Positions 8,896-57,719 of a DNA stretch of 64,000 nucleotides are shown one piece after another (position 1 is the first letter of the stretch; every line of letters starts with the position of its first letter). Made by a program: the position numbers and the translations under genes. This DNA is from Sphingomonas phyllosphaerae (GTDB taxonomy: Bacteria > Pseudomonadota > Alphaproteobacteria > Sphingomonadales > Sphingomonadaceae), in contig JAQIJC010000001.1 in the NCBI GenBank assembly GCA_036946405.1, positions 3,604,609 to 3,668,608 of the forward strand, written 5' to 3'. A model generated the notes under the pieces. That model had not been told where the DNA came from. It saw only the letters and a list, made by a program, of their open reading frames with translations, and ran no database searches.

Positions 8896-9990
8896 GTGAT
8901 GACGCGCCGCGCCGCCCTCGGGTCCGCGATCGCTTTGGGGGTGGCCTCCACCGCCGGCGCGGCGTCGACCGCGAAAAAGCCGCTGGTGTTCGCGCACCGC
9001 GGCGCCTCGGCATTGCGCCCCGAACATACGCTCGGCGCCTATGCCAAGGCGATCGCGGACGGCGCCGACTTCATCGAGCCCGATCTGGTCCCGACGAAGG
9101 ACGGCGTGCTGGTCGCGCGGCACGAGAACAACATCGTCGAGACGACCGATGTCGCCGATCACCCGGAATTCGCGCCGCGCCGCACGACGAAGACGATCGA
9201 CGGCGAGCCGCAGACCGGCTGGTTCACCGAGGATTTCACGCTCGCCGAGCTGAAGACGCTCCGCGCCAAGGAACGGCTCGGCACGGTCCGCCCCGAAAGC
9301 CGCAGCTATGACGGCCAGTTCCAGATCGTCACGCTCGACGAGGTCATCGACTTCGCCGCGGCCGAGGCGGCGGCGCGCGGGCGAACGATCGGGCTGGTGC
9401 CCGAGTTGAAGCACTCGACCTATTTCGCGTGGCTGGGGCTGCCGGTCGAGGACCGCTTCCTCGCGGTGCTCGCCGCGCACGCTTATACCCGTCGCGCCCC
9501 GGTGCAATTGCAGTCGTTCGAGGTCGCCAACCTGCGCTACGTTCGCGGAAAGCTGCCGAAGGGCGGCAACCTCCGGCTCGTCCAGCTGATCGGCGATCCG
9601 ACGCAGAAGCCGGCGGATGTGGCGAAAGCCGGCGGCACGCTCGACTATCGCACGATGGTGTCGCCCGCCGGGCTTCGCGAAATCGCGCGCTACGCCGACA
9701 TCGTCGCGCCGAACACGCGGATGCTGATCCCGCTCGCCGCCGACGGACGGCTCGGCGCGCCGACCAATCTGGTCGCCGAAGCACATGCCGCCGGGCTGGA
9801 GGTCTGCCCCTGGACTTTCCGTCCCGAGAACCGCTTCCTCGCCGCCGACTTCCGCAGCACCGCCGGGCCGGACGCGCGCCACGATGCCGGCTCGGTGGTC
9901 GAAATGCGCCGCTACATCGCACTCGGCATCGACTCGTTCTTCACCGACGATCCCGCGCTCGGGCGGCGGGCGGTGGACGGCGACCGATAA
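8896..9990 (+). CDS. glpQ: glycerophosphodiester phosphodiesterase with Tat signal
   Basis: (V)MTRRAALGSAIALGVASTAGAAS, then FAHRGASALRPEHTLGAYAKAIADGADFIEPDLVPTKDGVLVARHE (GDPD catalytic motifs). Start is GTG 8896 or ATG 8899, 2-5 nt after the receptor stop. Confidence 0.9.
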   Translation: MMTRRAALGSAIALGVASTAGAASTAKKPLVFAHRGASALRPEHTLGAYAKAIADGADFIEPDLVPTKDGVLVARHENNIVETTDVADHPEFAPRRTTKTIDGEPQTGWFTEDFTLAELKTLRAKERLGTVRPESRSYDGQFQIVTLDEVIDFAAAEAAARGRTIGLVPELKHSTYFAWLGLPVEDRFLAVLAAHAYTRRAPVQLQSFEVANLRYVRGKLPKGGNLRLVQLIGDPTQKPADVAKAGGTLDYRTMVSPAGLREIARYADIVAPNTRMLIPLAADGRLGAPTNLVAEAHAAGLEVCPWTFRPENRFLAADFRSTAGPDARHDAGSVVEMRRYIALGIDSFFTDDPALGRRAVDGDR

Positions 9991-9995
9991 AGCGG

Positions 9996-10024
9996 TTGCG
10001 CGAAAGGCGTCCGGCTCGTATATT
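9996..10024 (+). promoter_or_regulatory. possible sigma70-type promoter TTGCGC-N17-TATATT
   Basis: Read directly from the sequence. It lies about 120 nt upstream of ATG 10145. No other support. Confidence 0.3.
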
Positions 10025-10144
10025 CGGATGCGTCTGGTGTAGCCTTTCGCTTCATCGGCTTTCCCGACGGCTCCGCAGCGATGCGGGGCCGTTGTGCTTT
10101 TCGCCGGTTTCGGCGTTATCGTTCCCCAAGGAGAATTTCGCAGC

Positions 10145-10507
10145 ATGGCAGGTTACAAGGCCCCGGACTTCAACCAGCGCGCCGCCGCCGCCCGCGACGC
10201 CAAGGCACGCGCGCTCGAGGCGTTGAAGAACAAGGCCGCCCCCGATCCTGCAGAGGTCGCCGCCCGTCTCGCCGCGCGCGAGGCCAAGGAAGCTGCGGAG
10301 GCCGAGAAGCGCGAGCAGCGCAAGGCGGCGATCGCCGCCGAAAAGGCCGCCAAGGAAGAGGCGCGCGCGCAGGCCGCCGCCGAAGCCGCTGCCGCCGCCG
10401 AGGCGGCCGCCGCCGCCAAGCGCCCGCCGGTGCTGCCGACCGCCGCCGAACTCAAAGCGGCGCGCGACGCCCGCTACGCCGCGCGCAAGGCTCGCCAGAA
10501 GAAGTGA
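10145..10507 (+). CDS. Ala/Lys/Glu-rich small protein, DUF6481-like
   Basis: ORF 10094..10507 trimmed to ATG 10145, preceded by AAGGAG (10128-10133). Sequence MAGYKAPDFNQRAAAARDAKARALEALK...AELKAARDARYAARKARQKK. Codon GC3 is high. The family call is from memory. Confidence 0.6.
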   Translation: MAGYKAPDFNQRAAAARDAKARALEALKNKAAPDPAEVAARLAAREAKEAAEAEKREQRKAAIAAEKAAKEEARAQAAAEAAAAAEAAAAAKRPPVLPTAAELKAARDARYAARKARQKK

Positions 10508-11175
10508 TCCGCCCCGAGCTGCTCGGGGTAGCGGAGGTGCCGGACGGACCGCCGTTGCGGCTGTTCCGTCGCGGTGCCGACTTCATGATCGTGCTCGAAC
10601 GCAACGAGCTGATGAGCACGCGGATGAGCGGCTCGGAAGTCGCGCTCGGCACGATGACGTGTGACCGGTTGGTCGACCGGCCCGCCCCGCACCTCCTGAT
10701 CGGCGGCTATGGCATGGGCTTCACGCTCCGCGCTGTGCTCGCCCGGCTGGGGACCTCGGCGCAGGTCACCGTTGCCGAGCTGGTCCCGGGCATCATTGAA
10801 TGGGCGCGCGGGCCGATGGCGGCGCTGACCGACGGCTGCCTCGACGACCCGCGCGTGACGCTTAGGATGGGCGATGTCGGCGCGGCGATCGCCGCCGGCA
10901 GCGGACGCTATGACGCGATCCTGCTCGACGTCGACAACGGCCCCGATGGGCTGACCCGCCCCGCCAACGACGGCCTCTATGGCCCGCGCGGGCTGGCCGC
11001 GGCGCGTGCCGCCTTGCGCCCCGGCGGGGTGCTGGCGGTGTGGTCGGCGGCGCCCGATCCCCGCTTCGCCCGCCGCTTCGCCGACAGCGGCTTCGCGGTC
11101 GACGAGGTCAAGGTCCGCGCGCGCGAGAACGGCAAGGGTGCGACCCACGTCATCTGGTTCGGCTTGCGCCGCTAG
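10504..11175 (+). CDS. spermidine synthase-like class I SAM-dependent methyltransferase
   Basis: C-terminal 223 codons of ORF 10081..11175. GTG 10504 overlaps the upstream TGA (GTGA). Motifs LLIGGYGMGFTL...AELVPGII...YDAILLDVDNGP...GGVLAVWS. Confidence 0.8.
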   Translation: MIRPELLGVAEVPDGPPLRLFRRGADFMIVLERNELMSTRMSGSEVALGTMTCDRLVDRPAPHLLIGGYGMGFTLRAVLARLGTSAQVTVAELVPGIIEWARGPMAALTDGCLDDPRVTLRMGDVGAAIAAGSGRYDAILLDVDNGPDGLTRPANDGLYGPRGLAAARAALRPGGVLAVWSAAPDPRFARRFADSGFAVDEVKVRARENGKGATHVIWFGLRR

Positions 11176-11201
11176 GCTCGGTCGGAACCCCGCTCCTGAG
11201 C

Positions 11202-11231
11202 CGTCATTGCGAGCGTAGCGAAGCAATGACG
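11202..11231. repeat. Hairpin repeat, family B (minimal single hairpin)
   Basis: CCGTCATTGCGAGCGTAGCGAAGCAATGACG. Same arms as 25916..25993, 30864..30940 and 40516..40545. Confidence 0.8.
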
Positions 11232-11405
11232 ATGAGGGGCAGCAGATATCCCCAACGACACCTGTCACCCCGGCGAAGGCCGGGGCCCAGTTGGGAAGGC
11301 CTCTCAGGTGAAGCGCAACGCTGGTCACCTGCGGCACCCGACTAGATACCGGCCTTCGCCGACGTACATCACCTAGTGCTGTCACCCGCCCCGGCCTGAT
11401 GGTAG

Positions 11406-12380
11406 ATGCCGCGCATGGGTCACGGGCACCATCACCATCACCATCACCACCACGGCCACGATCACGGGCATGACCACGATCACGGCCATTCCCACGCACA
11501 TGCCACCCCGCCCGAGCGCTGGGATCATGTGTTCGCGATCGGGATCGCGCTCAACCTCGTCTATGTCATCGCCGAGGGCGTTGCCGGCTGGCTGTTCGAC
11601 TCGGTCGCGCTGCTCGCCGACGCCGGGCACAATCTCTCCGACGTGCTCGGGCTGGCGGTGGCATGGGGCGGCGCGGCGCTGGCGCGCACCGCGCCGTCGA
11701 AGCGCTTCACCTATGGGCTGAAGGGGTCGACGATCCTCGCCGCGCTCGCCAACGCGCTGCTGCTGCTGGTCGCGATCGGCGCGATCGCGCTGGAGGCGGT
11801 GCACCGCTTCGGGTCCGCACCCGCCGTGCCGGGGCTGACCGTCTCGGCCGTCGCCGCGCTCGGGATCGCCGTCAACGCGGTGACCGCATGGCTGTTCGCG
11901 CGCGGGCGCAAGGGTGATGTCAACGTCCGCGGCGCCTATCTCCACATGCTCGCCGACGCGCTGGTGTCGGCCGGGGTGGTCGCGGCCGGGGTCGTGATCT
12001 GGCTGACCGGCGCGGCATGGATCGACCCGCTGGTCAGCCTCGTCATCGCGGTGGTAATCTTCTGGCAGACCTGGGGGCTGCTGCGCGAGACCGTCGAGAT
12101 GTCGCTGTCCGCGGTGCCGCGCGGAATCGACTATGACCGGGTCAAGGACGCGCTCGCCGCGCTGCCCGGCGTCGAGGCCGTGCATGACCTCCACATTTGG
12201 CCGATGTCGACCACCGAACCGAGCCTGACCGCGCATCTGCGCATCCCGGCGGGGCATCCGGGCGACACGTTTCTGGAGGATGTGCAGGCGATGCTGCACG
12301 AGCGCTTCGGAATCGGCCATACGACGGTACAGATCGAGACCGGCACCGCCTGTACGCTCGCGGACGAGCGCACCGTCTAG
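11406..12380 (+). CDS. czcD: cation diffusion facilitator family transporter with His-rich N-terminus
   Basis: MPRMGHGHHHHHHHHHGHDHGHDHDHGHSHAH, then the CDF signature ...ALLADAGHNLSDV...YLHMLADALVS.... Has six predicted TM helices plus a C-terminal cytoplasmic domain. Confidence 0.9.
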   Translation: MPRMGHGHHHHHHHHHGHDHGHDHDHGHSHAHATPPERWDHVFAIGIALNLVYVIAEGVAGWLFDSVALLADAGHNLSDVLGLAVAWGGAALARTAPSKRFTYGLKGSTILAALANALLLLVAIGAIALEAVHRFGSAPAVPGLTVSAVAALGIAVNAVTAWLFARGRKGDVNVRGAYLHMLADALVSAGVVAAGVVIWLTGAAWIDPLVSLVIAVVIFWQTWGLLRETVEMSLSAVPRGIDYDRVKDALAALPGVEAVHDLHIWPMSTTEPSLTAHLRIPAGHPGDTFLEDVQAMLHERFGIGHTTVQIETGTACTLADERTV

Positions 12381-15581: not shown

Positions 15582-16580
15582 TCAGTCGCCCGTCACCTTC
15601 GCCGGACCGAGGTCGCCCTGCCCGACCGTCGTGCTCGCCATCGCCAGCATCGCGTCGAGGCTCTTCTTGGCCTGCACGCGCAAACCTTCGTCCATCTCGA
15701 TCCGCGGGGTCAGATCGCGCAGCGCGACATAGAGTTTCTCCAGCGTATTCAGCGCCATATATGGACAGATATTGCAATTGCAGTTCCCGTCCGCGCCCGG
15801 CGCGCCGATGAAGGTCTTGCCCGGCAGCGCCTTTTCCATCTGGTGGATGATGTGCGGTTCTGTCGCCACGATCAGCGTGTCGCCCGGCATGGCCATCGCG
15901 TAATCGAGGATACCGCGCGTCGAGCCGACGTAATCGGCATGGTCGAGGATCACCGCCGGACATTCCGGGTGCGCCGCGATCGGCGCGGTCGGATACTGCG
16001 CGCGCAGCTTGAGCAGCTCGGTTTCGCTGAACGCCTCGTGGACGATGCACACGCCCGGCCACAGGATCAGATCACGCCCGGTCTTGCGCGCGAGATAGCC
16101 GCCGAGGTTGCGATCGGGGCCGAAGATGATCTTCTGCTCGGGCGGGATCTTCGACAGGATCGTCTCGGCCGAGGAGGAGGTGACGATGACGTCGCTGAGC
16201 GCCTTCACCGCCGCCGAGCAATTGATATAGGTGAGCGCGATGGCATCGGGATGCTGCGCGCGGAACGCGGCGAATTGCTCGGGCGGGCAACTGTCCTCAA
16301 GGCTGCACCCGGCGTCCATGTCGGGGAGGATCACCGTCTTCTGCGGCGAGAGGATTTTCGCCGTTTCGGCCATGAAGCGCACGCCGCAGAAGGCAATGAC
16401 GTCGGCGTCGGTCGCCTGCGCCTTGCGGCTGAGGTCGAGACTGTCGCCGACGAAGTCCGCGAGGTCCTGGATCTCGGGCTTTTGATAGTAATGCGCGAGG
16501 ATCACGGCGTCGCGCTCCTTGCGGAGGCGGTCGATCTCGGCGCGCAGGTCGAGGCCCGTCAGGTTCGTCGGCTGTTCCAT
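15582..16580 (-). CDS. nadA: quinolinate synthase
   Basis: MEQPTNLTGLDLRAEIDRLRKERDAVILAHYYQKPEIQDLADFVGDSL...FCGVRFMAETAKIL...CNCNICPYM. This is typical NadA. Confidence 0.95.
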   Translation of the reverse strand: MEQPTNLTGLDLRAEIDRLRKERDAVILAHYYQKPEIQDLADFVGDSLDLSRKAQATDADVIAFCGVRFMAETAKILSPQKTVILPDMDAGCSLEDSCPPEQFAAFRAQHPDAIALTYINCSAAVKALSDVIVTSSSAETILSKIPPEQKIIFGPDRNLGGYLARKTGRDLILWPGVCIVHEAFSETELLKLRAQYPTAPIAAHPECPAVILDHADYVGSTRGILDYAMAMPGDTLIVATEPHIIHQMEKALPGKTFIGAPGADGNCNCNICPYMALNTLEKLYVALRDLTPRIEMDEGLRVQAKKSLDAMLAMASTTVGQGDLGPAKVTGD

Positions 16581-30262: not shown

Positions 30263-30856
30263 ATGGTGGATGAACCTCACAGCGTCGGCGACATCCTCGA
30301 TGCGATCGACGATCTCGCCGGCAAGCAGGACGAGATCGCAGTCGGCGACGTCGTCGAGGCGCTGGGCGCGCGCGGCTTCGGGCCGTTCCTGATCGTCATG
30401 CCGCTCATCGACATTTCGCCGATCGGCAGCATTCCCGGCCTGCCGACCGCGATGGCGGCGGTCATCATGCTGATCGCGGTGCAGATGGCGCTGGGGCGCA
30501 AGCACCTGTGGCTGCCCGGCTTCGTGCGGCGGCGCGCCGTGTCCTCGGACAAGGTGCGCAAGGCGGTGGACAAGACGCGCGGGGTCGCGCGGTTCATGGA
30601 TCGCTGGTTCCACGGGCGCTTGCCGGCGCTAACGCGCGGGCCGTTCGTGCGCGCGGCGGCGATCGGCGTAATCGCGCTCGCCTGCGCGGTGCCGCCGCTG
30701 GAACTGCTGCCGCTCGCCACCACCGCGCCGATGCTGGCGATCGCGGCGTTCGGGCTGGCGATCACCGCGCGCGACGGGTTGCTGATGATCGTCGCGACGG
30801 TGCTGGCGATGGCCGCGGTCGGGATCGGTGTGGGGTTGTGGAGCGGGCGGGGTTAG
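30263..30856 (+). CDS. exoD: exopolysaccharide biosynthesis protein ExoD family
   Basis: 197 aa. ...VGDVVEALGARGFGPFLIVMPLIDISPIGSIPGLPT.... Hydrophobic C-terminal half. Confidence 0.8.
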   Translation: MVDEPHSVGDILDAIDDLAGKQDEIAVGDVVEALGARGFGPFLIVMPLIDISPIGSIPGLPTAMAAVIMLIAVQMALGRKHLWLPGFVRRRAVSSDKVRKAVDKTRGVARFMDRWFHGRLPALTRGPFVRAAAIGVIALACAVPPLELLPLATTAPMLAIAAFGLAITARDGLLMIVATVLAMAAVGIGVGLWSGRG

Positions 30857-30863
30857 CGCGCAT

Positions 30864-30940
30864 CGTCATTGCGAGCGGAGCGAAGCAATCCAGGGCGTCC
30901 TGGTCCGGCTCTGGATTGCTTCGCTCCGCTCGCAATGACG
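30864..30940. repeat. Hairpin repeat, family B
   Basis: CGTCATTGCGAGCGGAGCGAAGCAATCC-loop-GGATTGCTTCGCTCCGCTCGCAATGACG. Confidence 0.85.
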
Positions 30941-30952
30941 TGATACTGGTAT

Positions 30953-31036
30953 CGTCGCCCCGGACTTGATCCGGGGCCCCGCTTGCCTTTGGCTCGGCAA
31001 GAAGAAGCGGGATCCCGGATCAGGTCCGGGATGACG
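30953..31036. repeat. Hairpin repeat, family C (ORF-less copy)
   Basis: CGTCGCCCCGGACTTGATCCGGGGCCCCGCTTGCC-loop-GAAGAAGCGGGATCCCGGATCAGGTCCGGGATGACG. Confidence 0.85.
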
Positions 31037-47791: not shown

Positions 47792-48708
47792 GAACGGAGC
47801 GCCTCATCGACGATCGCCTGCACCAGCTCGGGATAGCTCATGCCGGTATGGCGCGCCTGTTCGGGGACGAGGCTGAGCGGGGTCATGCCCGGCTGGGTGT
47901 TCACTTCGAGCAGGAACAGCCCGTCAACGCCGCGCTCGTCATCCCAGCGGAAGTCGGAACGGCTGGTGCCGCGACAGCCGAGCACGCGATGTGCCTGCAA
48001 CGCCAGCGCCATGCACGCCTGCGTGATCTCGTCAGGGATCTCGGCCGGAAAGATATGGTCGGTCATCCCGTCGGTATATTTGGCGTCGTAATCGTACCAT
48101 CCGGACTTCGGTCGCAATTCGGTGACGCCGAGCGCCCGATCGCCGAGCACAGCGGTGGTCAGCTCGCGCCCGCGTACATAGGGTTCGGCGAGCAGTTCCT
48201 CGAATTCCTGCCACGGCCCGGTCGCATCGCGCGCGATCGGGTTGCCGTAATTGCCCGCATCGGTGACGATCGCCACCCCGACCGACGAGCCCTCGTTGAC
48301 CGGTTTCAGCACATAGGGGCGCGGCAGCGGATCGGCGTCGTGCACGTCGGCGCTTTTCACGATCCGCCCGCCGGGCATCGGGATGCCGGCGGGGACCAGC
48401 ACCTGCTTGGTCAGCACCTTGTCGATCGCGATCACCGAGGTGGCGAGCCCGGAATGCGTATAGCGCAGGCCCATCAGGTCCATGAGCCCCTGCACGCTCC
48501 CGTCCTCGCCCGGCGTGCCGTGGAGCGCGTTGAAGACGAGGTCGGGGTTTGTTTCCGCGAGCCTGGCAGCGACGTCGCGCGCCATGTCGATGCGCGTCAC
48601 GCGGTGGCCGAGCGACTCGAGCGCGTCGGCGACACCGTTGCCGGATGAGAGCGATACCTCGCGCTCGGCCGACCAGCCGCCCATCAGGACCGCGATGTGG
48701 AGGGTCAT
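47788..48708 (-). CDS. ddl: D-alanine--D-alanine ligase
   Basis: MTLHIAVLMGGWSAEREVSLSSG...ALHGTPGEDGSVQGL...EVNTQPGMTPLSL. Confidence 0.95.
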   Translation of the reverse strand: MTLHIAVLMGGWSAEREVSLSSGNGVADALESLGHRVTRIDMARDVAARLAETNPDLVFNALHGTPGEDGSVQGLMDLMGLRYTHSGLATSVIAIDKVLTKQVLVPAGIPMPGGRIVKSADVHDADPLPRPYVLKPVNEGSSVGVAIVTDAGNYGNPIARDATGPWQEFEELLAEPYVRGRELTTAVLGDRALGVTELRPKSGWYDYDAKYTDGMTDHIFPAEIPDEITQACMALALQAHRVLGCRGTSRSDFRWDDERGVDGLFLLEVNTQPGMTPLSLVPEQARHTGMSYPELVQAIVDEALRS

Positions 48709-49778
48709 GCTCCCTCTCCCCGTTGGGGAGCATCGGGTGAACAGCGCGCCTCGCTGTTCAGATCAGGCTGGGAGCCTGATCGACCCGATGCTGGCTGGGG
48801 TGAGGGGTCGATGTCTCGCAGAGAGGTCGGGCTCGGTGAGACATGAGCCCCTCTCCCAACCCTCTCCCCGGAGGGGAGAGGGCTAATCGCCTCCACCAAA
48901 CCCACCCGCTGTATCTCCCATTCCAGTTCCACACCGCTCGCCGCCTTCACGCGCGCCCGGACATCCTCACCCAACGCCTCGATATCCGCACTGCTCGCGC
49001 TGCCGAGATTGAGCAGGAAGTTCGTATGCTTCTCGCTGACCTGCGCATCCCCCCGCCGCAACCCGCGACACCCGGCTTCATCGACCAAAGCCCAAGCCTT
49101 ATGCCCATCGGGATTCTTGAACGTCGACCCGCCGGTTTTCGAGCGCAGTGGCTGCGACGCCTCGCGCGCGGCGGCGATCCGGTCCATCTCGGCCTGGATC
49201 GCGGCGGGTTCGCCGGGCTGGCCGCGGAAGGTGGCGGCGATCACCACCGCGCCCTCCGGCAGGTCGGAATGGCGATAGGTATAGCCCAGCGCACCCGCCG
49301 CCAGCGTCCGCCGCTCGCCCGAGCGCAGCACCACTTCGGCCTCGACCAGCACGTCGGCGGTTTCGCGCCCATAGGCCCCGCCGTTCATCCGCACGAACCC
49401 GCCGACCGTGCCGGGGATCGAGCGCAGGAACTCCAGCCCCGCCACCCCGGCGTCGCGCGCGGTGGAGGATACGAGGATGCCGCTCGCCCCACCGCCGCAG
49501 CGCAGCGTCACCGCGTCGAGCGCGGCGGCGGTTGCGAACGGCTTGCCGAGCCGGACCACCACGCCGGGCACCCCGCCATCGCGAACGATCAGGTTCGAGC
49601 CGAGCCCGAGCGGCATGACCGGCACCGCCGGATCGAGCGCCGCGAGGAACGCGCACAAATCGTCGGCATCGGCGGGCTCGAACAGCCACTCCGCCGCCCC
49701 ACCCGCCTTGAACCAGACGAGTGGCGCCAGCGGGGCGTGCGGCGTCAGCCGCCCGCGGACCTCGGGAAGCGCGCTCAC
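48705..49778 (-). CDS. murB: UDP-N-acetylmuramate dehydrogenase with a repeat-encoded C-terminal tail
   Basis: ORF 48705..49817. LPEVRGRLTPHAPLAPLVWFKAGGAAE...GGAYG...FKNP...ELEWEIQRVG. After this, about 60 codons read through the family E repeat. I prefer GTG 49778 (GTGA overlap with the upstream micro-ORF). GTG 49817 is the longest option. Confidence 0.9.
   Translation of the reverse strand: MSALPEVRGRLTPHAPLAPLVWFKAGGAAEWLFEPADADDLCAFLAALDPAVPVMPLGLGSNLIVRDGGVPGVVVRLGKPFATAAALDAVTLRCGGGASGILVSSTARDAGVAGLEFLRSIPGTVGGFVRMNGGAYGRETADVLVEAEVVLRSGERRTLAAGALGYTYRHSDLPEGAVVIAATFRGQPGEPAAIQAEMDRIAAAREASQPLRSKTGGSTFKNPDGHKAWALVDEAGCRGLRRGDAQVSEKHTNFLLNLGSASSADIEALGEDVRARVKAASGVELEWEIQRVGLVEAISPLPSGERVGRGAHVSPSPTSLRDIDPSPQPASGRSGSQPDLNSEARCSPDAPQRGEGA
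48709..48883. repeat. Hairpin repeat, family E (composite, inside the 3' end of the murB ORF)
   Basis: GCTCCCTCTCCCCGTTGGGGAGC, nested hairpins, then GAGCCCCTCTCCCAACCCTCTCCCCGGAGGGGAGAGGGC. Same core as 54890..55000. Confidence 0.8.
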
Positions 49779-49975
49779 CACGGTCCGGCGCGCCACAATT
49801 GCGCCCACGCCTGCCACGCCGCCATGTTCGCCTCGCCCGCACGCCGCGTCGCCTCCTGCGCCGCGATCAGCGCCGCACCCGCATCGCTAGCGTGGCGACC
49901 GGCCTCCAGCGCGCGGCGCTGGGTGTCGAGAAGCTGCTTCTGCCAGTTGATCGCGGCGTCGAACCAGTTGGTCAT
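49775..49975 (-). CDS. candidate 66-aa Trp-rich helical protein between murC and murB
   Basis: Internal ATG 49975 of ORF 49775..50014 overlaps the murC TGA (ATGA). Its TGA overlaps a murB GTG (GTGA). [66 protein letters not shown]. 58 of 66 codons end in G or C. Confidence 0.45.
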
Positions 49976-51376
49976 GCGCGTTCCCCGATCGCGGCGGCCA
50001 GCCCGGCCGCCCATTTGGTGATGTCGCCCGCACCGAGGCAGATCACCTGATCGCCCGCGCGCACCTCGTCCGCCAGCACGTCGGCCAGCGCGGCGGCATC
50101 CGCCACCACCGCCGCCTGGCGATGCCCACGCTCCTGCAACCCCGCGACCAGCGCCTCGGCATCGACGCCCGGCACCGGCGCTTCACCAGCGGCATAGACC
50201 GGGGTGACATAGACCTGATCGGCGTCGTTGAACGCGCCGCGGAAGTCCTCCATCAGATTGCCGAGCCGCGAGTAGCGATGCGGCTGCACGACCGCGATCA
50301 CTCGCCCCTGCGCACTCTCGCGCGCGGCGGCGAGCACCGCGCGGATCTCGACCGGGTGGTGGCCGTAATCGTCGATGATCGTTGCGCCGCTTACCTCGCC
50401 GACCTTGGTGAAGCGCCGCTTGACGCCCGAGAAGCGCTCAAACCCCTTCTGGATCGTCGCGTCGTCGATCCCCAGCTCCAGCGCGACGCCGATCGCGGCG
50501 AGCGCGTTCTGGACGTTGTGCCGCCCCGGCATCGGCAGGTCGATCCCCTCGATCGAGCGCACCGCGCCGTCGCGCGCGCGGACCTGCGCCTCGAAGCGGT
50601 TGCCGCCCGGATAGGGCGTGACGTTGACCTCCGCGCACGTCCGCCGACGCCGCAAAGCCATAGGTGACGATCCGCCGGTCGCGGACGCGCGGGATCAACG
50701 CCTGCACCTCGGGATGGTCGAGGCACAGCAGCGCCGCGCCGTAGAAGGGCACGTTCTCGACGAACTCGACATAGGCGTCTTTGGCGCGGTCGAAGTTGCC
50801 ATAATGGTCGAGATGCTCGGGATCGATGTTGGTGACGACCGCGATCGTCCCATCGAGCCGCAGGAAGCTGCCGTCGCTCTCGTCGGCCTCGACCACCATC
50901 CAGTCGCTCGCGCCCAACCGCGCGTTCGAGCCGTAGCTGTTGATGATCCCGCCGTTGATGACGGTCGGATCGACCCCGCCGGCATCGAACAGCGCCGCGA
51001 CCATCGAGGTCGTCGTGGTCTTGCCGTGCGTCCCCGCGACCGCGACCGTCGACTTCAGCCGCATCAGCTCGGCGAGCATTTCGGCGCGGCGCACAACCGG
51101 GATCCGGTTGCGCAGCGCCGCCTCGACCTCGGGGTTGCCGCGCTTCACCGCGGTCGAGGTCACGACCACCGCGACGCCTTCGACGTTGGCGGCGTCATGC
51201 CCGATCGTCACCGCGATGCCGCGCGCGCGCAATCCCTCGATCACATAGCCCTCGGCGACGTCGGAGCCCTGCACCTTGTAGCCGAGATTGTGCATCACCT
51301 CGGCGATGCCGGACATGCCGATCCCGCCGATCCCGACGAAATGAATCGTGCCGATGTCGGTCGCGACCCCCTTCAT
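49972..51376 (-). pseudogene. murC: UDP-N-acetylmuramate--L-alanine ligase, reading frame interrupted near 50629-50634
   Basis: The N-terminal two-thirds lies in ORF 50438..51376 ([28 protein letters not shown]...[11 protein letters not shown]...[14 protein letters not shown], then nonsense). The C-terminal third lies in ORF 49972..50661 in another frame (...[18 protein letters not shown]...[10 protein letters not shown]...VVQPHRYSR...). The frames meet at GACGTGCGCGGAGGTCAACGTC. Confidence 0.85.
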
Positions 51377-52533: not shown

Positions 52534-53759
52534 TCGGCGCTCCAGCGTTGCTGCGCGATATACGGACTGCGCAGCAGGAACGGATTGCGGCGCGTAAAGG
52601 CGAGCAATAGCCCCATCCCCATCGACAGCGCGACCATCGACGACCCGCCATAGCTGATGAACGGCAGCGTCATCCCCTTCGACGGCGCCAGCCCGGTGTT
52701 GACCGCCATCGAGATCAGCGCTTGCGCGCCGAACTGCACCGCCAGCCCGGAGGCGGCGAGCAGGCGGAACGGGTCCTGTTCGTCGAGCAGCTTGACGAAC
52801 ACCCGCACCACGATCGCGAGGAACGCCAGCCCGACGATCATGCACGCCAGCAAGCCGAACTCCTCGCCGATCACCGAGAAAATATAGTCGGTATGCGCCT
52901 CGGGCAGCCCGTATTTGACCGTCCCCGCGCCCGGCCCGGTTCCGAACCAGCCGCCGGAGGTCAGCGTGTTGTGCGCGGCATTGGTCTGGAAGTGATCGGC
53001 CGCGCCCTCGCCCTCGACGCCGGGAAACAGGAAGGCGTCGATCCGCTTGCGCGCGGTGCTGTAGAACAGATAGGCCGCGATCAGCGCGACCGGCACCATC
53101 GACAGGAAGCCGAAGATCACCCGGGTCGGCGTCCCCGCGATCGTCACCAGCGCCAGCCAGATCACGCAGAACATCACGGTCTGCCCGAAATCGGGCTGCA
53201 GCATCAGCAGCATCGCGATCAATCCGGTCAAAGCGGCGGTGATCGCGGTCACCGGCAGCTCGGCATCGCGCGACTTGAACGACAGCAGCCACGCGACCGT
53301 CACGACGAAGAACGGTTTGAGAAATTCGGACGGCTGAAACTGCGCGAACCCGAACCCGACCCAGCGCCGCGCGCCGTTGACGCTGACCCCGAGGAACGGC
53401 ACCAGCACCATCAATGCGACGCACACCGCCGCCCCGATCAGCGACATGCGCCGCGCCATCGTCAGCGGCAACATCGACACGCCGAACAGCACCGGCAGCG
53501 ACACCGCCACCCACATCACCTGCCGCCAGAAATAATGCAGCGGCGCGAAGTGGAGATGCTCGCCCGAATAGCGCGTCGCGCTGACCGGCGAGCCGGCGGC
53601 GACCGCGATCAGCCCGATCGCGATCAGGAACAAGGCGAGCAGCAGCAGCACGCGGTCGATATCCCAGAACCACGTCCCCAGCGGCGACGGATCGCCGCGC
53701 CCGCCGCGGTTGCGCAGCGAGACACCGGGACGCGCCGGCTCGGTTCGGGTCGCGCTCAT
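52530..53759 (-). CDS. ftsW: FtsW (SEDS family) cell division protein
   Basis: 409 aa, polytopic. ...QPSEFLKP...TDYIFSVIGEEFG...PSKGMTLPFISYGGSS. Confidence 0.95.
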   Translation of the reverse strand: MSATRTEPARPGVSLRNRGGRGDPSPLGTWFWDIDRVLLLLALFLIAIGLIAVAAGSPVSATRYSGEHLHFAPLHYFWRQVMWVAVSLPVLFGVSMLPLTMARRMSLIGAAVCVALMVLVPFLGVSVNGARRWVGFGFAQFQPSEFLKPFFVVTVAWLLSFKSRDAELPVTAITAALTGLIAMLLMLQPDFGQTVMFCVIWLALVTIAGTPTRVIFGFLSMVPVALIAAYLFYSTARKRIDAFLFPGVEGEGAADHFQTNAAHNTLTSGGWFGTGPGAGTVKYGLPEAHTDYIFSVIGEEFGLLACMIVGLAFLAIVVRVFVKLLDEQDPFRLLAASGLAVQFGAQALISMAVNTGLAPSKGMTLPFISYGGSSMVALSMGMGLLLAFTRRNPFLLRSPYIAQQRWSAE

Positions 53760-55147
53760 GCCAGCTCCTCCACCGCCGCGCGGAAGGCCGCGCCCCGTTG
53801 CTCGAAATCGCGAAACTGATCGAACGAGGCGGCGGCGGGCGACAGCAGCACCACGTCGCCGCGCTCGGCCTCCTGCGCCGCCAGCTTCACCGCGCGCTCC
53901 AGCGTCTCAACCTCGGCAACCGGCACCTGCCCGCGCAGCACCGCGGCGAAGCGCGGCCCGCCCTCACCGATCGTATAAGCACGCACGACATTGCCGAGGT
54001 GGGGCACGCAGGCATCGAGATCGTCGCCCTTCACCTTGCCGCCGAGAATCCAGTGGATGCGCGGGAAGGCGGCCAGCGCGGGCGCGGCGCTTTCGGGGTT
54101 GGTCGCCTTGCTGTCGTTGATCCACGCCACGCCGTTCAGCGTCGCGATCCGCTCCATGCGGTGCGGCAGCCCTGTGAAAGCTTCGAGCGCGCGCTCGATC
54201 GTCTCGGCGTCGACGCCCAGCGCCTCGGCGACCGCGACCGCGGCCTTGGCATTCTGTTCGTTGTGCGGGCCTTGCAGCGACGGCCAGCACGCCTGCTCGC
54301 CGGGCAGCGGCACGCCGTCGATGAAGCGGACGTTCAGCCCCTCCGGCGCGTTCGCGAGCACGTCATGCTCGGCCTCCGCTTCATAGTCGACGATCGCGAG
54401 GTGCGCGGGCGACTGCATCGCGAACAGCCGCGCCTTGCTGGCGGCGTACGCCTCGAAACCATCATAGCGATCGAGATGGTCGGGGGTGACGTTGAGCAGC
54501 ACCGCGACGTCGCAGTCGAGCGTCTGCGTCAGGTCGATCTGGTAGCTCGACAGTTCGAGCACGTAGACGCCGCCTTCCGGCAGCGGTTCCTGCGCGAGGA
54601 TCGGCAGGCCGATGTTACCGCCCATCAGCGTTGGGATGCCGGCGGTGTCGAGGATGTGGTGGACCAGCGCCGTCGTGGTCGACTTGCCGTTGGTGCCGGT
54701 GATCCCGACGACCTTGTGTGCGGGCAGGTCGGCGCGGGCCTGCGCGAACAGCTCGATGTCGCCGATGATCGGCACGTCCACGGCGCGCGCCGTCGCGGCG
54801 AGCGGGTGCGTGTTGAGCGGCACGCCGGGCGAGACGACGAGCGCGTCGACGGTGGCGAGGTCGAGTGTCTCGAGATCAATTACTTCAAGCCCTCTCCCCT
54901 CCGGGGAGAGGGTTGGGTGAGGGGCAGGGGTCTCACCGAGACCGTCTTCTCTGCGAGGCACCGACCCCTCACCCCAACCCTCTCCCCGGAGGGGAGAGGG
55001 AGTCAGGGCATCACGCTTGGCGACATCGCTATCCCACGCCAACACCGTCGCCCCGCCCGCGAGCAACGTACGAACGGTCGCGGCGCCCGAGCGTGCCAGC
55101 CCGAGCACCGCATAATGTTTCCCCGCCCAGGCGCGCGAGACGATCAT
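53756..55147 (-). CDS. murD: UDP-N-acetylmuramoylalanine--D-glutamate ligase with an in-frame 37-aa repeat-encoded insert
   Basis: ORF 53756..55231 trimmed to ATG 55147, which overlaps the mraY TGA (ATGA). [21 protein letters not shown]...[12 protein letters not shown].... Insert [37 protein letters not shown] lies in the N-terminal domain. Confidence 0.95.
54890..55000. repeat. Hairpin repeat, family E, exactly 111 nt, inside the murD coding sequence
   Basis: CCCTCTCCCCTCCGGGGAGAGGG-TTGGGTGAGGGG...CCCCTCACCCCAA-CCCTCTCCCCGGAGGGGAGAGGG. Both ends fall on murD codon boundaries. Confidence 0.85.
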
Positions 55148-57586: not shown

Positions 57587-57634
57587 GCGCGCGGCCTAGC
57601 GGAAGCGGCACGAGCAGGAACAGCGGCCACACCA

Positions 57635-57704
57635 CCGTTCGCCCTGAGCTTGTCGAAGGGCGTGTCACGCGCGACACGTGCTTCGACAAGCTCAGCACGA
57701 ACGG
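57635..57704. repeat. Hairpin repeat, family D (between murE and murF)
   Basis: CCGTTCGCCCTGAGCTTGTCGAAGGGC ... GTGCTTCGACAAGCTCAGCACGAACGG. Confidence 0.85.
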
Positions 57705-57719
57705 TGGCGTGGGCGGGGC

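Follow-up and report, generated by a model that had tools for sequence, protein, structure and literature searches.

In-frame palindromic repeats were first described as the Rickettsia palindromic elements (RPEs) (Ogata et al. 2000, cited in PMC3733652 and PMC3184786). The element described here belongs to a sequence family designated T1. It is a 111-nucleotide (nt) palindrome inserted in the essential gene murD of Sphingomonas phyllosphaerae, within a 64,000-nt stretch of contig JAQIJC010000001.1 (assembly GCA_036946405.1, positions 3,604,609 to 3,668,608) that is referred to as the window. As far as the accounts in these papers go, RPEs are like the murD element in being palindromes of ~100-150 nt that lie in frame in conserved, often essential genes. 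The RPE peptide lies outside the functional core and the host proteins are functional, as is predicted for MurD. T1 has the other features of this class as well: it is a repeat of ~100 nt present at several unrelated loci, its length is a multiple of three with no stop codon, as the first-pass annotation of this DNA had noted, and the open reading frame (ORF) of murD is intact and orthologous to insert-free genes. RPEs are AT-rich and come from an obligate intracellular lineage whereas T1 is GC-rich and its host free-living; given the base composition, the two are unlikely to be homologous in sequence. An RPE site generally holds one element, which is inherited vertically and then decays. The murD site is different in that it has at least ten families, its occupants turn over and the palindrome is well conserved. 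The murD insertion is a further case of the known in-frame palindromic repeats; the recurrent, multi-family site is the part that may be new. Such repeats are usually presented as rare tolerated accidents, but across a bacterial order this single site of codon scale, in an essential gene, has been filled repeatedly. We favor, with a probability of about 0.8, the reading that MurD tolerates T1 as a translated repeat, in a loop that is unusually permissive and acts as a persistent landing pad.

Two other groups of small repeats are also similar to T1. Repetitive extragenic palindromic sequences (REPs) and the REP doublets forming hairpins (REPINs) consist of short GC-rich palindromic units paired in a hairpin of ~100 nt, are found mostly between co-directional genes with a minority inside genes, and make no target-site duplication (PMC3733652, PMC8049555). 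REP units are palindromes of 20-40 nt, two of which form a larger hairpin, and the 23-nt hairpins of T1 fit this description. The ends of T1 however have no GTAG or CGTC tag, the flanks being CT, AG or similar, and the 19 small ORFs scanned within the 64-kb window gave no Y1_Tnp match that would indicate a REP-associated tyrosine transposase (RAYT). Miniature inverted-repeat transposable elements (MITEs), such as Correia/NEMIS, ERIC/RU and Nezha (PMC3184786, PMC2759123), resemble T1 in having terminal inverted repeats (28 nt and 100% complementary in T1), small size and no coding sequence of their own. They too form in-frame internal fusions or gene 3' extensions, as the second T1 copy does on murB, and repeats that lengthen gene 3' ends are already known (PMC3184786, PMC2759123). 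T1 is unlike MITEs in that each terminal repeat is itself a perfect hairpin. No parent insertion sequence was identified, though no search was aimed at one with these ends; in addition, the T1 copies compared have no consistent target-site duplication. Thus the architecture of T1, with two 23-nt hairpin ends and an inner stem, is REP/REPIN- or MITE-like.

A catalogue of REPs inside genes covers many bacteria, S. alaskensis and S. wittichii among them (Di Nocera et al. 2013, PMC3733652). The supplement of that paper does not list murD as a REP-decorated gene, and the paper describes no recurrent multi-family site. The literature searches turned up no murD-specific report and no essential gene with a recurrent hot spot for several families, which is not proof of novelty.

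The element and its host gene consist of the following features.
53756-55147, minus strand: murD, the host gene, encoding UDP-N-acetylmuramoyl-L-alanine--D-glutamate ligase, 463 amino acids (aa) (from domains, homologs and model).
54890-55000, minus strand: T1-family palindromic element, 111 nt, corresponding to murD codons 50-86 (from sequence, repeats, fold and frame).
54978-55000, minus strand: terminal hairpin at the gene-strand 5' end, CCCTCTCCCC-GGA-GGGGAGAGGG, with a 10-bp stem and a 3-nt loop (an inverted repeat).
54913-54977, minus strand: inner imperfect stem, TTGGGGTGAGGGG / CCCCTCACCCAA, and a subfamily-specific centre (from repeats and fold).
54890-54912, minus strand: terminal hairpin at the gene-strand 3' end, CCCTCTCCCC-TCC-GGGGAGAGGG (a direct repeat of the other end).

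On the plus strand, 54890-55000 has the order CCCTCTCCCC TCC GGGGAGAGGG TTGGGTGAGGGG ... CCCCTCACCCCAA CCCTCTCCCC GGA GGGGAGAGGG. Repeat analysis showed terminal arms of 28 nt each (54890-54917 and 54973-55000) that are 100% complementary. Each end is also a hairpin with a 10-bp stem, and the two 23-nt hairpins are spaced 88 nt from start to start. Loss of the 88 nt between these direct repeats would shift the murD frame (compare the 76-nt collapse in L045, below). The inner arms are 32 nt long and 75% complementary, and the centre has ~40 nt. The 23-nt hairpin pattern occurs three times in the window against 0.00 expected from 100 shuffles. The gene-strand RNA of the element folds at -101.6 kcal/mol, compared to -61.7 ± 3.9 kcal/mol for shuffled sequences (z -10.2; none of the 200 shuffles was as low). 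The palindromic repeat with two hairpins that the first-pass annotation had described is borne out by these arms and this fold. A terminator scan of the gene strand at the element found no terminator-like site, and Rfam gave no match at the gathering score anywhere in the window; the matches at the element were sub-threshold microRNA-precursor hairpins only, which are generic hairpin noise. Four other window hairpins were scored against shuffles (the 3' part of murE, z -0.6; the ftsZ linker, -3.1; 23290, -0.6; 37715, +0.6) and were ruled out as elements, the scores marking them as compositional.

The ATG of murD is at 55147, and the 147 nt (49 codons) ahead of the element place it exactly at codons 50-86. 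It encodes 37 residues rich in Gly, Pro, Glu and Arg, which directly follow ...VAKRDALT in the N-terminal domain. The frame stays open through the ATGA stop/start overlaps on both sides (mraY-murD at 55144-55147 and murD-ftsW at 53756-53759). Codon count, translation and open frame are all as the first-pass annotation had read them. The flanks, which it had called ordinary MurD, encode the Pfam domains Mur_ligase_M and Mur_ligase_C with a GTNGKST P-loop, in the gene order mraY-murD-ftsW. The ORF encodes a MurD of full length. The closest homologs are Sphingomonas MurDs with 86-87% identity, and E. coli MurD structures align with an E value of 6e-67, with a break in the alignment from query residue 41 to 96. 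For the Pfam domain MurD-like_N the score is 25.7, under its cutoff of 27, because the insert splits the domain.

An AlphaFold2 model of the window MurD has a mean predicted local distance difference test (pLDDT) score of 84.8. Residues 51-83 are below 50 and the rest is confident. Mapping onto a MurD model, which the first-pass annotation had proposed, places the insert in this low-confidence loop, which helix 42-47 precedes and strand 87-89 follows. The best Foldseek matches of the model are E. coli MurD structures, with template-modeling (TM) scores of 0.74-0.78. The insert is thus a predicted disordered loop in the α2-to-β3 connection of the N-terminal domain, and the remaining enzyme is predicted to keep the normal MurD fold. 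From the Rossmann-like topology, the α2-β3 connection would lie on the edge opposite the nucleotide-binding strand ends. MurD is a drug target, and the loop is probably a site in it that tolerates insertions very well. Peptides derived from repeats such as T1 are not to be taken for protein motifs. A different insert was seen in the MurD of locus L014, at core alignment position 239; it has 31 residues, YETHPCEFWSNYDDNVEDPYDLWGAFDDNGQ, many of them acidic or aromatic, is non-palindromic and is unique to that MurD.

The murD loop was compared in 80 loci from species-representative Sphingomonadales genomes. The GLARSG-to-SPGV segment measures 58-59 aa in insert-free MurDs (e.g. those of Novosphingobium, Sphingorhabdus, Stakelama and S. 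paucimobilis) versus 81-110 aa in insert-bearing ones. All of the long inserts are strong DNA palindromes (-60 to -123 kcal/mol), the hairpin extending over the whole insert. A palindromic element is present in the loop at 37 of the 80 loci (including L043, L075 and the collapsed L045), and the starts fall within ~15 nt. Short footprints are found in four more, L008, L039, L011 and L057; the one in L008 is an exact solo T3 hairpin, ATC CTC CCC GCG CAC GGG GAG GAT CTG, and that in L039 is also a solo T3. Among 150 MurD representatives of 50%-identity clusters the segment has 52-68 aa in nearly all, with no repeat-type insert outside the GLARSG-type (sphingomonad) MurDs. No common DNA motif was seen at the empty murD sites.

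The inserts fall into at least ten sequence families.
Family T1: CCCTCTCCCC..GGGGAGAGGG.
Family T2: CCCCTCCCCTTCAGGGGAGGGG.
Family T3: AATCCTCCCCGGNACGGGGAGG.
Family TTCCCCGGCGAAGGCCGGGG: peptide ..PGLRRGT.
Family TTCCCCCGCGAAAGCGGGGG: peptide ..RFRGGT.
Family SRAKSRG..LGTNE.
Further families: the distinct elements of L018, L036, L059 and L067.
Families known as protein only: P0037 and P0161.

T1, T2 and T3 have a common CCTCCCC-like core and may be distant relatives; the other families are clearly unrelated. In every T1 locus, the window included, T1 starts at murD nt +147, and the T3 core starts at +143 in all eight T3 loci. The starts of T2 are at +147, +148, +151 or +154, and two reading frames are used, giving PLPFRGGVGGG (L054, L013) or PPLQGRGWGG (L012, L026, L042). 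Given these varied starts and two frames, T2 entered the murD loop more than once.

Two families have additional features. In L012 (Sphingomonas sp. TREG-RG-20F-R18-01) a 275-bp tandem repeat of 2.4 copies, 94% identical, lies over T2 and the murD 5' end (9858-10530), and gives rise to a decoy 92-aa MurD N-terminal ORF (10001-10279) just ahead of the true murD (10276-11664). The true ends of T3 are AAATCCTCCCC...GGGGAGGATTT. T3 copies also lie at gene junctions (L007 15201-15322, L022 13777-13894, L026 13767-13885 and 16209-16327, L039 15213-15331, L042 16102-16232), where the right end provides a GGAGGA Shine-Dalgarno-like motif 4-8 nt ahead of the next start codon.

A second T1 copy and a palindrome nested in it lie elsewhere in the window.
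48712-48882, minus strand: second T1 copy, a 171-nt composite at the murB-ddl junction (from hairpin pattern, repeats and ORF).
48731-48790, minus strand: nested palindrome of family N1, 60 nt, CATCGGGT...ACCCGATG, in a terminal hairpin of the second T1 copy.

The composite (48705-48885) is part of the murB ORF and gives it a C-terminal tail of ~58 aa with the stop in an ATGA overlap with ddl. The closest relatives (L001-L003) have orthologs of this copy at their murB-ddl junction, T1 elements of 111 nt. The centre of the window's second copy is similar to that of the murD copy, which is in turn common to L201 and L001. Junction copies in many relatives end ...GGGGAGAGGG(CT/AGC)ATGA, so the stop/start overlap is preserved. 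N1 (60 nt, peptide ..ASGRSGSQPDLN..) is nested in a T1 or T2 terminal hairpin at three independent places: the window murB-ddl copy at 48731-48790 and the murD-loop elements of S. zeae (L013) and L201.

The same 111-nt subfamily is found at the identical murD nucleotide in GCA_942641475.2 (L201), where the copy has an extra nested 60-nt element, and in Sphingomonas sp. BE138 (L001), where it has an internal deletion. Its presence in two independent assemblies excludes an assembly artefact. Ortholog comparison, which the first-pass annotation had suggested as a check of lineage specificity, showed that the close relatives S. endophytica (L002) and NPDC079357 (L003), both 85-86% identical, have no palindrome in the loop. 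In metagenomes the left-end 23-mer, GGGGAGAGGGTTGGGGTGAGGGG, was found in at least 120 contigs, a lower bound, with 61-74% GC, many element variants and unrelated loci. Four of the ~92 assessable copies among the matches listed lie in frame within genes, encoding an FAD dehydrogenase, a membrane glycosyltransferase, a radical-SAM methylthiotransferase and DnaE. In-frame survival is thus a minority outcome of the repeat superfamily. The first-pass annotation had called repeats in essential coding sequence uncommon; repeats inside coding sequence are a minority, but one already documented, including in sphingomonads (PMC3733652).

The elements turn over between close relatives. In a neighbor-joining tree of MurD with the loop removed, the families are scattered. 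Within the S. faeni/aurantiaca clade, six loci (L005, L006, L007, L014, L035, L058) have a 99-nt T1 and two (L010, L021) a 128-nt T3, and the flanks are otherwise of the local clade type up to ~10 nt from the element. These flanks favor local replacement over import of a large foreign segment, and a large recombination import behind the T3 copies is ruled out. At the murB-ddl junction of the same clade L007 is empty, L035 has T1, and L058 and L021 have another family. In addition, L006, L010, L014 and L045 have chimeras there (~16180-16330) with a T1 left half and an other-family right half, which show directly that different elements have recombined at a single site. Together, the N1 nesting and the murB-ddl states show that resident elements serve as substrates for insertion and recombination, and this is the basis for proposing a landing pad. 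The murD loop of L045 (Sphingomonas faeni P300S2) has a single T1 hairpin left (10148-10170): 76 nt between the terminal direct repeats are missing, which puts murD out of frame. Most likely the palindrome collapsed when short reads were assembled. Such elements do collapse in short-read assemblies and can give false frameshifts in essential genes.

The murD loop is a long-lived hot spot, with multiple families, turnover in close relatives, nesting, internal deletions and solo-hairpin footprints. In the mechanism we propose, the loop would be exceptionally permissive, and a resident palindrome would act as a landing pad or recombination partner for later elements, so that the site stays filled while the occupant changes. 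Translating ribosomes would melt the hairpin and leave the operon unbroken. Either homogenization (gene conversion or correction of quasi-palindromes) or selection on the structure of the nucleic acid could keep the palindrome strongly conserved. The first-pass annotation had proposed that a mobile hairpin landed in a tolerated surface loop. The dispersed repeat, its in-frame position and the model-predicted disordered loop agree with this, and the dispersal suggests that T1 is mobile. A single landing does not hold up against occupancy at 37 of 80 loci by at least ten families.

Several points weigh against this proposal. First, T1 and T3 each have one fixed start nucleotide, and this could reflect a single ancient insertion per family that was spread by recombination, with fewer independent events. 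Second, permissiveness together with random insertion could in principle give the same pattern as a landing pad. Third, no Y1 or other transposase was detected by Pfam among the 19 small window ORFs, and no consistent target-site duplication was found in the flanks of T1, T2 and T3 copies; transposition is thus putative. Fourth, the placement of the loop depends on a predicted model with a shallow 37-sequence alignment, and the insert-bearing protein is predicted from the gene sequence. Lastly, the window assembly has at least one probable indel error, in murC.

The murD copies of T1 are flanked by CT...CT, those at the L001-L003 murB-ddl junction by AG...AG and most metagenome copies by CT...AG. 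CT...CT as a target-site duplication was ruled out, as it is not general across copies. No pair of an empty and a filled site differing by the insertion alone was found: the murB-ddl junctions of L007, which is empty, and L035, which is filled, show further differences. The absence of duplications is compatible, by resemblance, with IS200/IS605-type (RAYT) mobilization. One additional A at 50630 (GCGCGG-A-GGTC) breaks murC (49972-51376, minus strand) into two frames and is missing from four close relatives and every other surveyed locus. It is probably a sequencing or assembly error; otherwise it is a true frameshift in an essential gene.

The second of these points can be taken further as an explanation in which insertion is random everywhere and the loop is simply the one internal position in the division and cell wall (dcw) operon that tolerates 25-50 extra residues, with no targeting, landing pad or function. 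The 14 dcw genes from rsmH to ftsZ were surveyed in 47-80 loci each for lineage-specific in-frame insertions of at least 15 aa; this survey under-calls inserts that a majority of the sequences share, and it passed over a few orthologs interrupted by stops or frame breaks. Core position 51 of murD is the only internal site with palindromic inserts. MurB has C-terminal tails in 12 loci where the gene reads through junction elements. The FtsQ tail, the FtsZ linker and the FtsW N-terminus are length-variable and had no palindromic elements in this survey. Random insertion gains some support from the loop itself, which varies from 58 to 74 aa without palindromes too (e.g. ADAVQDDSITTDVVELHF), and from in-frame survivors in many other proteins (metagenome copies; PMC3733652). 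It leaves four things unexplained. The FtsZ linker and FtsQ tail have no palindromes, and the 116-nt ftsA-ftsZ spacer is likewise free of elements, which speaks for a landing pad; the starts lie within 15 nt and are not spread loop-wide; N1 is nested three times in T1/T2 hairpins; and orthologous copies are conserved above the synonymous rate. We consider random insertion with passive filtering unlikely.

A second alternative is that the hairpin, ~150 nt into murD and just past the overlapping mraY stop, is a selected RNA or DNA structure and the peptide a by-product. It might be a 3'-5' exonuclease barrier that stabilizes the upstream mraY and murF message, a processing site or a translation pause, and different repeat families would have been recruited to it convergently. 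This would account for the recurrence of unrelated families at one site, and it has a precedent in E. coli, where REPs are established to stabilize upstream mRNA (discussed in PMC3733652). The conservation of the element also bears on it. In the S. faeni clade the orthologous 99-nt T1 copies have a mean identity of 0.916, while the flanking murD is 0.733 identical at third codon positions and 0.952 at first and second positions. By part, identity is 0.97 in the terminal hairpins, 0.93 in the inner stem and 0.815 in the centre. The copies are far above synonymous-site identity, at all codon positions, so the palindrome is maintained and is not drifting, and the element is not simply decaying. 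These data fit selection on structure, but gene conversion between copies or intrastrand quasi-palindrome correction could explain them alike. An alignment fold of 11 T1 copies showed conserved stems with few informative compensatory changes and is neutral on selection.

The distribution of elements along the operon is a further argument for a selected hairpin. Strong junction hairpins were found at murE/murF (21 of 69 loci), murC/murB (27/55), murB/ddl (8/54, plus the 12 tails), murG/murC (5/69) and mraY/murD (6/77). None were found at ftsA/ftsZ (0/47), though the spacer is always > 50 nt, or at ddl/ftsQ (0/52). The elements thus cluster at murE/murF, murC/murB, murB/ddl and the murD loop. 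In three loci (L048, L056, L061) the loop is empty and a full palindromic element lies instead in a mraY-murD spacer of 115-160 nt; in most species the two genes overlap. This complementarity between junction and loop comes from 3 loci, however, and roughly half the species, close relatives of the source strain among them, have no element here at all. Nor does the gene strand have a terminator-like feature at the element, or the element an Rfam family. We regard a selected hairpin, with a function at the RNA level, as an improbable but live explanation. We give the same low weight to its fuller form, in which the position ~150 nt into murD would be a docking point for a strong hairpin that tunes mRNA stability, processing or translation of mraY-murD, with repeats recruited there and kept palindromic by selection. 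If that were true, the coded loop would be the price of placing an RNA element where genes overlap without a spacer.

The last alternative, a native ancestral MurD loop with a chance palindrome or a mis-assembly, could draw on the extra residues at the same place in many orthologs, the probable 1-nt murC error and the L045 collapse, but it is very improbable since the segment matches a repeat at unrelated loci, insert-free MurDs are the rule outside Sphingomonadales and common inside the order, the orthologous inserts are DNA palindromes from unrelated sequence families, and the 111-nt subfamily is in frame at the same nucleotide in the two independent assemblies, BE138 and GCA_942641475.2. 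Neither an ancestral loop nor an artefact, the two outcomes that the first-pass annotation had named as fatal to its proposal, was thus encountered.

Its repeated occupation by different families makes the murD loop a natural system for asking whether elements target existing hairpins and how palindromes stay intact in coding DNA. The locus also raises the question of whether an operon of overlapping genes can gain RNA structure only inside a permissive protein loop.

Three other features of the window were noted. The murE-murF spacer (133 nt, untranslated) has an unrelated palindromic element at 57632-57706, CACCGTTCGTGCTGAGCTTGTCGAAGC...CCTTCGACAAGCTCAGGGCGAACGGTGG. A small ORF lies between murC and murB (~49830-49975, minus strand), its start in an ATGA overlap with the murC stop. 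Directly after an ExoD-family gene, 30856-30960 is a near-perfect palindrome of another repeat family, with a 33-bp stem (-77 kcal/mol, z -11).

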